A DNA stretch of 31,754 bases from a candidate division WOR-3 bacterium. GTDB taxonomy: Bacteria; Hydrothermota; Hydrothermia; LBFQ01. The stretch is from assembly GCA_039802605.1 (NCBI GenBank), contig JBDRWW010000013.1:1-31754 (forward strand). The letters run 5' to 3'. Position numbers: made by a program. Shown piece after piece: positions 15,001 to 18,000 of this stretch. Every line of letters begins with the position of its first letter. Position 1 is the first letter of the stretch.

Positions 15001-18000
15001 CTTTCAAAATTGGGTAGGGTTGGTGAAGCAGTTGAAATAATGCTATCCGTAAAGGGGAAGGCTGAAGAGGTGGGATATACGGAAATATGGAAAAATGTTA
15101 TGTCGGAAATTCAAAGTAATACCAGTTCTTAGATGTGTTCCATATATCCAAAAGCATTTTAACGAAATCCTCAAACATATTTAAGGGTATCTGCGTTGAT
15201 GCATCCGATAAGGCTTCCCTTGGGTTTGGATGTACTTCCGCAAATATCCCATCAACCCCAACCGCAACCGCCCCCCTTGCCAAATGCGAAATTAGTTCCC
15301 TGTATCCCCCAGAATTTTCCGATAATCCCGGCCTTTGTAGTGAATGGGTTGCATCGTATATAACCATTATACCCGCCTTCTTTATCCAAACCAAATTCCT
15401 GAAATCAACCACCAAATCGTTATAACCGAAAAATGTTCCCCTTTCCGTTATCCAAACGTTTTGATTTCCCGTACTAAAAACCTTTTCCGCCGCCTTTATT
15501 ATCTCGTTCGGAGACATAAACTGTCCCTTTTTTATATTTACGACTTTACCGGTTTTACCCGCCTCTATTAACATATCCGTTTGCCTTGAAAGGAAGGCGG
15601 GTATTTGTATAACATCAACAACCTCCGCCACCCTTTTAATATCGTGTAAATCATGCACATCCGTTAAAACCCTTAAGCCGGTTTCATCTTTCACCTTTCG
15701 CAAAATCTCCAACCCCCTTTCAATCCCAGGACCCCTAAAACCTTTAACGGATGTCCTGTTTGCCTTATCATAAGAGGACTTGAATACAATGTCTATTTCC
15801 AACCTTTCGGAAATTTCTTTTAACCTTTCCGCCGTCTTTAAAACCATCCCCTCGCTTTCAATCACGCAGGGGCCGGCTATGAATATAGGGGTTTTCATCC
15901 AAGGGGATTCCTCGGTGATAGTTGGGTGGGAATTACTATATCCGCAATGGATTCCATATCCCTATGCGTTATAGATACATCCTTATGAACCCATATTAAG
16001 GGTAGGGGATAACCTTCCGGCGAAAGCCGGGCTATATATCCCAAAAATTTCCCAATATTTTCGGGTTCAACATTCAATATCTCAACCTTATATGTTGAGG
16101 TGGAAAATGGGGATAACCTAACAAAGGTTTGGTATATGTATATGTCAAGTATTTTAACAAATTCCACCGGCAATTCCATCTTCTTCTCCTCTAAGGATGC
16201 CTCTATTGGTTCCGCATACCCATTTTTACCCAAAGTGCAAATGTTAAACATAACCTGATCCGTGATAAACCCCTTTATATTCCATTTTTTAACATAATCG
16301 GACAGGAAAGAGTCCTTTGTTATAAAGAATATCGGGTTTTGCAATGATACCAAAAACTCTATTGCGGAAAGGTATTCGTAATACAAGAGTAGGGCGTTTG
16401 CATACACATATATTGGTAATCCTTCATTCCTAAACCCCTCTGCAAACTTTACAAAAGCAAAATCTTCATCCCAGAACGTACCCTTTATATCCTCAATTAA
16501 ACCCTTTAACTCCCCCTCTAAGCCTTTAACATCATCGTATTTAACATCCAAATGTTTAATCCAATCGTATGTTGGTTGAGGGCTTATAACATCGCTTATA
16601 AAGGAGCCATCCATTAGAACCATATATTCACCTTTGTCGTCCAAGTCTTTGAGGATTTTTAAAAGGTTTTTTATTTCCGCCAACCTCATCCACATTGATA
16701 GAAATTCCGCTAGATTCTTGTTTCTCAGGATATTCTTTTCCATTTTACCCACAAAGGATATTCCCTCATCATTAAAACCATCACCGATTTTAACATATGC
16801 CAGACCTGTAATCGCAAATATCATATCAACATTCCTTATGGTATAGTTATACGAACCATCAACCGCTATTATGGGTCTTTCCGGAATATCATCGGGGAAT
16901 GGATGCCATTTCTCATCGTCAAGGGCCGGTAATTCCTCGTAATCCCTCTCTCCACCGAGATTATAAATCCCCCACTTGCCAATATTCGCCAAAAATCCGT
17001 AAATTGACCTCTCGTGCATTATTGTATTCTAATGGGCATTGGAAAGGCTGTACCCTTAATAAGCAGCATGGTTGAAGGTGTTAAGGCCTTTTCTATTTTT
17101 ATATATTTTAAGACATTTATCATTAATAGGGCAGTACCCGTATCGCTTACAACGGATGAAGGTATGTAATGGGATGTGGCATTTGGGGGTAGGTTCTTTA
17201 TATAAGGGTTTTGGTCGTTTAGTTTGAAGAAAACCTGTATAGAATCCGCACCGCTTACCGCATTCCAAGAAACAAATATTGAATCCCCAACGGAATGGAA
17301 TATAGTATCAACGGATATGCTGTCGGGTGGATTTACACTTGGTAATGTGAATTGTATGTCTTCCCCATACTTTGCGGTATGTATCCTTATGTTTGTTCCG
17401 CCGGAAAGGTTTATGTTTTGGGGTATGCCGTTTGAGTCGGCTAACATAAACAGCCCCTTATCCGAATAATATTTTAATAGGGTGCTCCCCACCTGCACAT
17501 GTGCCGATGGGTCTTCCTGGCCATCCACGAGAACCTTAAATATTGCCGTTTCGTATTTAATTGTATCCAAAAAGGCCGGGAATGAAGGGGGTGTTATATT
17601 TGAAGGTAGTATGGAATAGAAACTCCTCAGAGCCGGACCGGTTGCCCCACCAACACCGAATACGGATGTATGGGATATGCTGACCTTCTCCTTACAGGAT
17701 GTTATGAATAAAAGACCAAAAATTATAAAGGATAACCTTTTCATAACGCTTGATATTATAAGGATGAATTATTCGGCGAATATTATGGTGTTTGCCATAA
17801 GGTTCCCGTGCCTGTTTTCCCTTTCCGGTAAGAAGCACCCCTGCTCGCCAAAGGTCGCACAACCCACAAAGGGAACGCCTCTTCCAAGCCCATCCTTGAA
17901 GTTTTCTATTGCCTCATTAATCCCATCCATAACCACGCCCACACAACCTGCGCAGTATATCAATATTGCCCCCTTTAAGCCTTTAAAATCCTTGCCCTTT

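Follow-up and report, generated by a model that had tools for sequence, protein, structure and literature searches.

An archaeal-lineage Mre11-Rad50-HerA-NurA gene set in a WOR-3 clade lacking AddAB, with nearest relatives in Aquificota

End resection is usually carried out by RecBCD/AddAB or RecJ-RecQ in bacteria, and by Mre11-Rad50-HerA-NurA in archaea. The four archaeal genes are each reported to be essential in Sulfolobus islandicus (PMC4351679). Some bacteria also have NurA, among them Deinococcus radiodurans and Thermus thermophilus (PMC9960219, PMC5448004) and Thermotoga maritima. The NurA-HerA proteins of Deinococcus and Thermus are described as less than 20% identical to the archaeal ones, and their role has been called controversial (PMC9960219). 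One review describes characterised bacterial NurA proteins for Deinococcus and Thermus only, both of which fall outside the archaeal radiation (PMC13748450). In our control searches D. radiodurans and T. maritima had NurA and no PF12705 match, so "NurA without AddAB" has precedents. One hot-spring branch of WOR-3 bacteria has lost AddAB and carries the archaeal four-protein machine, apparently relayed by Aquificota. As in archaea, all four proteins are present, of the same lineage, with catalytic residues and zinc hook kept. Unlike the archaeal system, the set resides in a bacterium with RecA, RecF/R, RuvABC and PriA, and it forms no four-gene operon: mre11 and rad50 are adjacent outside genus g1, and nurA and herA stand alone. 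Unlike the case of Deinococcus, Thermus and Thermotoga, a single branch can be named for the loss of AddAB, and its sisters still have the system.

The window, the whole stretch of 31,754 nucleotides analysed here, is contig C13 of genome G000 (1.65 Mb, 90% complete, 0.01% contamination). Its gene content is bacterial and includes a sigma-70 factor, L25, peptidyl-tRNA hydrolase, LytB and OmpA. The closest named HerA records include Candidatus Caldipriscus (62-66%) and one Candidatus Hydrothermia bin, which puts the genome in WOR-3 as a relative of Candidatus Caldipriscus. The places that an earlier note on this DNA had given for nurA, herA, mre11, rad50 and a Hel308-like helicase gene were all confirmed (Table 1). 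These five genes are spread over four ordinary chromosomal contigs, and their GC and codon use is host-like (within 2 SD of 1137 ORFs). Against a genome of the same genus, dN/dS was 0.17 for nurA, 0.07 for herA, 0.13 for mre11 and 0.16 for the Hel308-like gene, values at which the four genes read as being under purifying selection. The note had described the resection genes as scattered. This is true of G000, where they occupy four sites on three contigs, but in the clade mre11 and rad50 are usually adjacent (9/9 g2, f2 and f8 loci where both genes were read); genus g1 alone showed them separated at sites clear of contig ends. No nurA-herA neighbours occurred in any clade locus read. Two raw RNA runs, about 3% of each being read, gave 0 reads on the window, and an RNA-contig run gave 11 pieces of it, none covering nurA.

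Table 1. Positions of the resection, helicase and nurA-neighbouring genes in genome G000
Feature	Position	Strand	Size	Remarks
nurA	window 15895..17019	-	374 aa	PF09376 56.2 bits, cut-off 21; putative 5'-3' nuclease of archaeal lineage
herA	C12:16985-18652	-	555 aa	
mre11	C12:8530-9771	+	413 aa	
rad50	C2:19243-21663	+	806 aa	zinc hook PF04423 40.2 bits
Hel308-like helicase gene	C11:42231-44396	-	721 aa	
Gene of a protein of no known family	window 17019..17744	-	241 aa	no Pfam match; 1-base overlap with the nurA start
DAHP synthetase I family gene	window 15098..15898	-		PF00793; overlaps nurA stop by 4 bases

The distribution of the genes was followed in 64 genomes of the class, 22 from families f1, f2 and f8 and 42 from others. 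NurA was present in 12/12 f1, 7/7 f2 and 3/3 f8 genomes and in 0/42 others, which enlarges the count of 13/13 against 0/28 in the earlier note, and HerA gave the same result (22/22 against 0/42). Across the phylum the HerA profile matched 21 of 226 genomes, every one of them a member of f1, f2 or f8, and 0/205 other WOR-3 genomes. The tracing now extends beyond NurA to Mre11, found in 22/22 clade genomes (20 by one query, two beside rad50 in fetched loci), and to Rad50-sized matches, found in 19/22. Only long open frames were counted for Rad50, because the Rad50 C-terminal query also matches ABC transporters. Beyond the clade the Mre11 query matched three proteins, all about 240 aa long. When the NurA and Mre11 profiles were used to look for homologues, they found 26 and 20 proteins, almost all from clade members. 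Throughout the clade, whose genomes are all incomplete (57-98%), the four genes are nearly always single-copy and lie among housekeeping genes. Small contigs with second copies (G039:C76 and G025:C172) look foreign.

The AddAB genes have the opposite distribution. PF12705 at E<=1e-15 was found in 40 of the 42 non-clade genomes of the class, for the most part as two paired frames of 900-1080 aa; of the other two genomes, one has AddA alone and one is 67% complete. AddA or AddB is present in 41/42 non-clade genomes and in 0/22 clade genomes. Each of three frame pairs scanned consists of a UvrD-type helicase and a nuclease protein, and for two such pairs the best NCBIfam models were RecB-like/AddA and AddB, below cut-off. 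Weak PF12705 matches occur in 8/22 clade genomes, in frames of 105-515 aa; all eight were fetched and contained no AddA and at most the nuclease tip of AddB. A six-frame scan of G000 with class-built AddA and AddB profiles and with E. coli RecB, RecC and RecD detected none of these five proteins, the sole match being UvrD. The reported lack of a RecBCD/AddAB nuclease is thereby upheld, and the data support the conclusion that the four archaeal-lineage genes mark one clade and that the absence of AddAB coincides exactly with it.

Species trees of 21 and 33 rows, built from five proteins (RpoB, RpoC and three ribosomal proteins) and rooted on other WOR-3 classes, recovered (f8,(f1,f2)) with 100/99 support, as well as f1+f2 (100/99). 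The clade is nested among AddAB-bearing families and its sister, with weak support (85/91), is f9, in which AddA and AddB pieces were found in 2/2 genomes. This nesting and the AddAB-positive sister make AddAB an ancestral trait of the class, and its loss falls on the branch in which the four genes first occur. Sister families keep AddAB and bacterial SbcCD, whereas the clade has no AddAB and its Mre11 and Rad50 group apart from SbcCD. Some of the families with AddAB have SbcCD-like pairs of their own, and in G007 addA, addB, sbcD and sbcC stand in a row.

Several sequence hallmarks identify the four proteins. The top NCBIfam models for all five proteins, helicase included, are archaeal, as the earlier note had found, with scores again far below the equivalog cut-offs of these lineage-specific archaeal models. 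Profile searches of PDB with the clade proteins point to the resection-system entries 4d2i, 2ygk, 3tai, 9x1l and 3av0, which we take to be from Sulfolobus, Pyrococcus and Thermococcus; the entries 1ZUP and 7F6D, named in PMC9960219, were not among the matches listed for NurA and HerA. The NurA matches are confined to four sequences, presumably all archaeal. The Mre11 profile gave 163 bits to the best Mre11 structures, 112-127 to the next, presumably archaeal entries, and 45-76 to SbcD entries. In NurA, D54, E115, D137, K235, Y337 and H345 are invariant in 17/17 aligned relatives, and the first five match the catalytic D/E/D triad and the conserved K and Y of Sulfolobus solfataricus NurA (D58, E116, D133, K202 and Y298; PMC3326311). 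The columns of the HerA-binding patch (S. solfataricus I295 and F300) hold P/V/I/A and L/Y/F/I/V/Q, and the I295 column is proline in f1. HerA keeps the Walker A/B and SQRP motifs and groups with archaeal repair HerA, not with defence HerA or CedD. PF09378, the model of its N-terminal HAS barrel, was not listed among the matches, although the alignment of the profile to the HerA of PDB 4d2i runs over positions 5-516 of 521. Mre11 retains its metal ligands and has the five phosphoesterase motifs. Rad50 keeps a CPVC zinc hook, and its D-loop is archaeal-type (DEPT vs DEGFG). The active sites of the four proteins are intact. A predicted complex of a NurA dimer with the N-terminal 118 residues of HerA scored 0.02 against a mark of 0.32 and is counted neither way.

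In a 160-row HerA tree, the clade forms one bacterial group with Hydrogenothermaceae and Desulfurobacteriaceae (96), and the named members among the rows around it are archaeal; a taxon was obtained for nine of 20 representatives looked up, namely eight archaea, none of which belongs to the group, and a Persephonella, which does. A careful HerA tree kept 34 of 61 rows, 13 of them archaeal, with a long-branch second copy and 26 rows dropped for speed or branch length left out. It recovered the clade (99/95), the clade with Hydrogenothermaceae (100/99) and both with Desulfurobacteriaceae (100/98), two of the five rows given this last name being titled just "uncultured bacterium". A single Aquificota HerA clade was rejected (p-AU 0.002) in a test chosen after the tree had been seen. 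The NurA tree agrees with this branching; its Aquificota rows are unnamed. For Mre11 and Rad50, the trees split the clade and archaea from SbcD (96) and SbcC (100). Trees, which the earlier note lacked, resolve the clade for HerA and NurA, but those of Mre11 (a quick tree) and Rad50 (without Aquificota archaeal-type Rad50) do not recover it as one group within the archaeal side. One Aquificota Mre11 (G065) falls among archaea, away from the other Aquificota.

Archaeal-type NurA occurs in 40/91 Aquificota. The HerA relatives there are about 36-41% identical, and herA is unlinked to the other three genes in the loci read. AddAB-sized PF12705 genes were found in 23 of the 40 NurA-bearing Aquificota and none were detected in 17; in this frequent company of AddAB-sized genes the Aquificota HerA, NurA and Mre11, the nearest relatives, differ from the clade. 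We found no characterisation of these three proteins in the literature. The comparisons support an archaeal lineage for the four resection genes, not an SbcCD or Deinococcus type, and by the sequence trees the nearest relatives of HerA and NurA are Aquificota (Hydrogenothermaceae), not archaea. The label "archaeal-type" therefore fits the lineage of the proteins but not their closest kin, HerA being nested inside Aquificota. For the same reason the set is not peculiar to three families: they stand alone within the class and, for HerA, within the phylum, but share the set with another thermophilic phylum, the Aquificota. The simplest history, and the most likely one, would run from archaea to Aquificota and from there to the stem of f8+f1+f2. 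This direction is suggested by the nesting inside Aquificota and by breadth (40/91 Aquificota vs 21/226 WOR-3 genomes).

The earlier note counted the Hel308-like helicase in the mark of the clade. This did not hold, because f8 is without the gene (0/3); the helicase marks only f1+f2 (19/19 genomes, and 0/42 other class genomes). The nearest outside helicases are from Aquifex, Hydrogenivirga, Hydrogenobacter, Thermocrinis and Aquificaceae, and one is labelled Gammaproteobacteria. The Aquificota kin, mostly named Aquificaceae, are 35-40% identical over about 93% of the length. A near full-length helicase occurs in 50/91 Aquificota, 43 without and seven with archaeal-type NurA, and a divergent other NurA was found in 5/5 tested Aquificota genomes without the archaeal type. 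Ski2-like helicases are known in bacteria (PMC13623763), but a review states that Hel308 is absent from them (PMC7776575), with which the occurrence in Aquificota conflicts. The protein shares Ski2-type motifs (RecA1/RecA2), the five-domain span and a C-terminal helix-hairpin-helix with archaeal Hel308/Hjm and metazoan HELQ (PDB 2p6r, 2va8 and 2zj8). Its predicted model (pLDDT 93) had Hel308 as top Foldseek match, and its profile could be aligned with an archaeal Hel308-type protein over 624 columns with probability 100, the helix-hairpin-helix included. R621 of domain 5 is invariant in 97 rows. The winged helix, ratchet and helix-hairpin-helix that constitute Hel308 domains 3-5 (PMC13623763) were all recognised, and model and alignment together indicate that the helicase is built like Hel308, with all five domains. 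It differs from Hel308/Hjm in its identity of 22-25%, TM-score of about 0.6, long stem branch and extra N-terminal three-strand piece. Brr2 scores as high or higher structurally: in a second comparison Brr2 cassettes reached Z 29.2 vs 26.1 for 2p6r, to which 575 residues aligned. The helicase tree, with four archaeal rows as outgroup and no Brr2/ASH-Ski2 rows, is a three-way split of f1, f2 and Aquificota. The gene may have come by a second transfer, or may have arrived with the rest and then been lost in f8. In g3 (5/5 genomes) it is also split, into two genes of about 224 and 515 aa at separate places, cut between the two motor domains and each flanked by unrelated genes; three such pairs tested are under purifying selection.

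G000 keeps RecA, RecJ, RecF, RecN, RuvABC, PriA and UvrD, and a divergent RecR (132.9 bits vs a cut-off of 162.55). RecJ is over cut-off in 5/5 tested genomes and RecF is present in 5/5. RecQ, which Deinococcus uses together with RecJ (PMC9960219), was found in 0/5 of the genomes tested, with only marginal matches in G000. RecO (TIGR00613) was undetected in G000, in nearly all f1 and in g4. A 146-codon frame at C8:63514 matches a class-built RecO profile with 27.8 bits. For Aquifex aeolicus the absence of both RuvAB and PriA has been reported (PMC1193525). A replacement of RuvAB or PriA by the Hel308-like protein in G000 was ruled out, since ruvA, ruvB, ruvC and priA are present. Five genomes had suggested that the helicase mirrors the loss of RecO; this was also discarded, RecO being present in g3 (5/5) and none being seen in f6 and f9.

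We somewhat favour the explanation that the archaeal-lineage set displaced AddAB as the end-resection machine, the front end of double-strand-break repair. It builds on the observed presence and absence of genes, on the clade and its polarity, and on the lineage, intact active sites and purifying selection of the genes; the donor, the order of gain and loss, the activities and the formation of complexes are what we infer from sequence and analogy. The class ancestor would have had AddAB; herA, nurA, mre11 and rad50 of archaeal lineage would have entered the stem lineage of f8+f1+f2, the most likely donor being an Aquificota bacterium, itself an earlier recipient from archaea, and addAB would have been lost. 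By analogy with archaeal biochemistry, Mre11-Rad50 would bind and clean the broken end, and a HerA hexamer would drive duplex DNA into a NurA dimer, which would remove the 5' strand and leave a 3' tail, with no Chi site needed. RecF/RecR and a reduced RecO would load RecA on the tail, a route proposed because there is neither an AddAB loader nor RecQ, and RuvABC and PriA would finish and restart. In f1 and f2 the Hel308-like protein would act as a 3'-5' fork/D-loop helicase and may substitute for RecQ, which is missing. Against displacement, gain and loss are one evolutionary event, so that 22 against 42 genomes are not 64 independent points. The separate places of nurA and herA, the f1 proline in the I295 column, and Mre11 and Rad50 trees that do not recover the clade also count against it. 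A stronger version is held tentatively: that the archaeal set is the only, essential route from break to RecA, its 3' tail handed over through RecF/R with almost no RecO; that the genes were relayed from archaea through Aquificota to WOR-3, Aquificota keeping the intermediate (both systems) and repeating the end state (AddAB lost); and that a true Hel308 orthologue in Aquificota and f1+f2 stands in for RecQ, one genus making it as two proteins cut between the motor domains.

The chief competitor of displacement is that RecJ with UvrD (or the Hel308-like protein) and RecF/R resect, as in Deinococcus, and that AddAB was lost for that reason. HerA-NurA and Mre11-Rad50 would then be accessory, dealing with blocked ends and with over-replicated or incoming DNA at high temperature, and gain and loss would share a branch by coincidence or loose redundancy. 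We regard this as rather unlikely, though the remaining RecJ, UvrD, RecF and RecR could resect on their own, RecJ and RecF being found in all tested genomes. The AddAB-sized genes in 23/40 NurA-bearing Aquificota mean that the two systems are not exclusive. Among bacteria RecFOR is reported as commoner than RecBCD/AddAB (PMC1193525), and nurA and herA are non-essential in Deinococcus and Thermus (PMC7776575, PMC9960219, PMC5448004), where deletions gave modest defects or higher resistance (PMC9960219, PMC7776575) and a herA mutant of Thermus proved sensitive to UV and heat (PMC5448004). The missing RecQ speaks against this reading, and the RecFOR route is weakened by the state of RecO, which goes undetected in g4 and in f1 is either undetected or reduced to the 146-codon piece. 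All four genes are moreover retained clade-wide though partly scattered, and the proteins belong to the archaeal lineage, in which the set is essential, and not to the Deinococcus type.

A different history with the same function, by direct transfer from archaea, transfer from the clade to Hydrogenothermaceae, or separate transfers for each gene, appears improbable. The best curated profiles are archaeal, the sister position to Hydrogenothermaceae gives no direction by itself, the careful HerA tree has just 13 archaeal rows, and both the G065 Mre11 and the three-way helicase split could be read this way; but in the HerA and NurA trees alike the clade falls within the diversity of Aquificota, where the first rows to branch off are Desulfurobacteriaceae-like, and HerA is in 0/205 other WOR-3 genomes vs 40/91 Aquificota with NurA. 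An anti-phage or foreign-DNA system (defence-type HerA with a Hachiman-like helicase) in place of repair is very improbable. PADLOC did report HerA with up to 192 bits and HamB with up to 92, and bacterial NurA-HerA are said in a review to degrade mainly viral DNA (PMC13748450). The repair HerA model, however, scores 322 bits vs 135 for anti-phage HerA, the HamB matches cover short motor stretches only, and the genes, nearly always single-copy, are clade-wide in housekeeping surroundings. A binning artefact, in which stray archaeal contigs had entered the bins and incomplete assembly had hidden addAB, is largely refuted and hardly credible. The incompleteness of the clade genomes and the foreign-looking second-copy contigs would agree with it, but the genes lie on 32-310 kb contigs among bacterial genes, G000 contamination is minimal, the gene trees show again the groups f1, f2 and f8 and the division between g1 and g2, and AddA/AddB was detected in nearly all similarly fragmented genomes outside the clade and in none inside.

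The component parts were already known; what appears new is an archaeal-lineage set where AddAB vanishes, the Aquificota relay and a helicase across Aquificota. Our literature search found no archaeal-lineage set replacing AddAB, no Aquificota relay and no Hel308-type helicase described across Aquificota, an earlier remark on Aquifex/Thermotoga HerA-NurA being possible. The word "repair" is absent from the main text of a WOR-3 genome survey (PMC12542636), and the available sections of PMC1193525 and PMC10946056 make no mention of the case of this clade. In the clade the archaeal-lineage set appears on the same branch where AddAB disappears, and the AddAB-bearing sisters serve for comparison, while Aquificota, a phylum with cultured thermophiles, comprise genomes that have AddAB and genomes that lack it. 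Whether NurA-HerA can be the main resection machine of a bacterium is therefore testable there by paired knockout. The arrangement also raises the question of how resection by an archaeal complex is connected with RecA.

In the window, nurA lies within a conserved f1 gene string of unrelated genes. The DAHP synthetase I family gene is an operon passenger of nurA and follows it in 12/12 f1 genomes and 0/10 f2/f8 loci. The gene of the 241-aa protein, immediately upstream of nurA in 12/12 f1 genomes and likewise in 0/10 f2/f8 loci, is probably another passenger, and the N-terminus of its product suggests a lipoprotein-like protein.

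Among the 91 Aquificota genomes sampled, an archaeal-type NurA is present in 40, and a Hel308-like helicase of near full length in 50. Genes of the size of AddAB, the helicase-nuclease of the sister families, were found in 24 genomes, of which 23 also carry the archaeal-type NurA, and were not found in 50 of the 51 Aquificota genomes without it. From this last group, all five genomes tested harbor a divergent NurA, and SbcD-type nucleases are present in both of the two tested for them. Families of the class that have AddAB contain nuclease-ATPase pairs of various kinds (genomes G007, G057 and G049). 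In G007 (contig C94, locus L329) sbcD and sbcC immediately follow addAB, while in G057 (C1, L160 and L330) a phosphoesterase and a 783-aa ATPase precede it. An SMC-like protein of 908 aa, in which no hook motif was matched, was found in G049 (C40, L328).

The Hel308-like helicase of genus g3 is encoded by two unlinked genes in all five genomes, a natural split into a RecA1 half of about 224 aa and a piece of about 515 aa running from RecA2 to the C-terminus, with dN/dS of 0.11-0.16 in the three pairs tested. Extra near-full and partial copies of the Hel308-like gene occur in G036, a genome of genus g1, on contigs C104 and C99 (L088, L096). Second copies of herA/mre11 or nurA lie on small contigs in G039 (C76, L153) and G025 (C172, L026); trees place these copies apart from the clade, or the clade profile misses them, and both contigs are probably contaminating archaeal DNA.

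Homologs of RecO were not detected in most genomes of family f1, nor in those of genus g4 and families f6 and f9 of the class. The RecR of G000, the genome under study, is divergent, as is its RecO-like frame, and its recF pair is probably an assembly overlap. The CRISPR array of the window is preceded by a degenerate repeat and extends to the contig end.

Coordinates of the features discussed (G000 unless stated)
Feature	Position	Strand	Remarks
RecO-like frame, 146 codons	C8:63514-63951 (= L416:2515-2952)	+	Likeness to N-terminal part of RecO only
recF, two near-equal copies	C14:23218-24174; C5:37-993		Both at contig ends
Split Hel308-like helicase, g3 (G027-G031)	L161:6561-7241; L162:7220-8752; also L351-L356, L163
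Alternative sigma-70 factor	window 8856-9695	-	Has regions 2, 3 and 4; immediately follows the genes for L25 and peptidyl-tRNA hydrolase
241-aa protein, no known family	window 17019-17744	-	Immediately upstream of nurA in 12/12 f1 genomes
CRISPR array	window 31248-31744		8 repeats of 30 bases above Rfam cut-off (RF01315)
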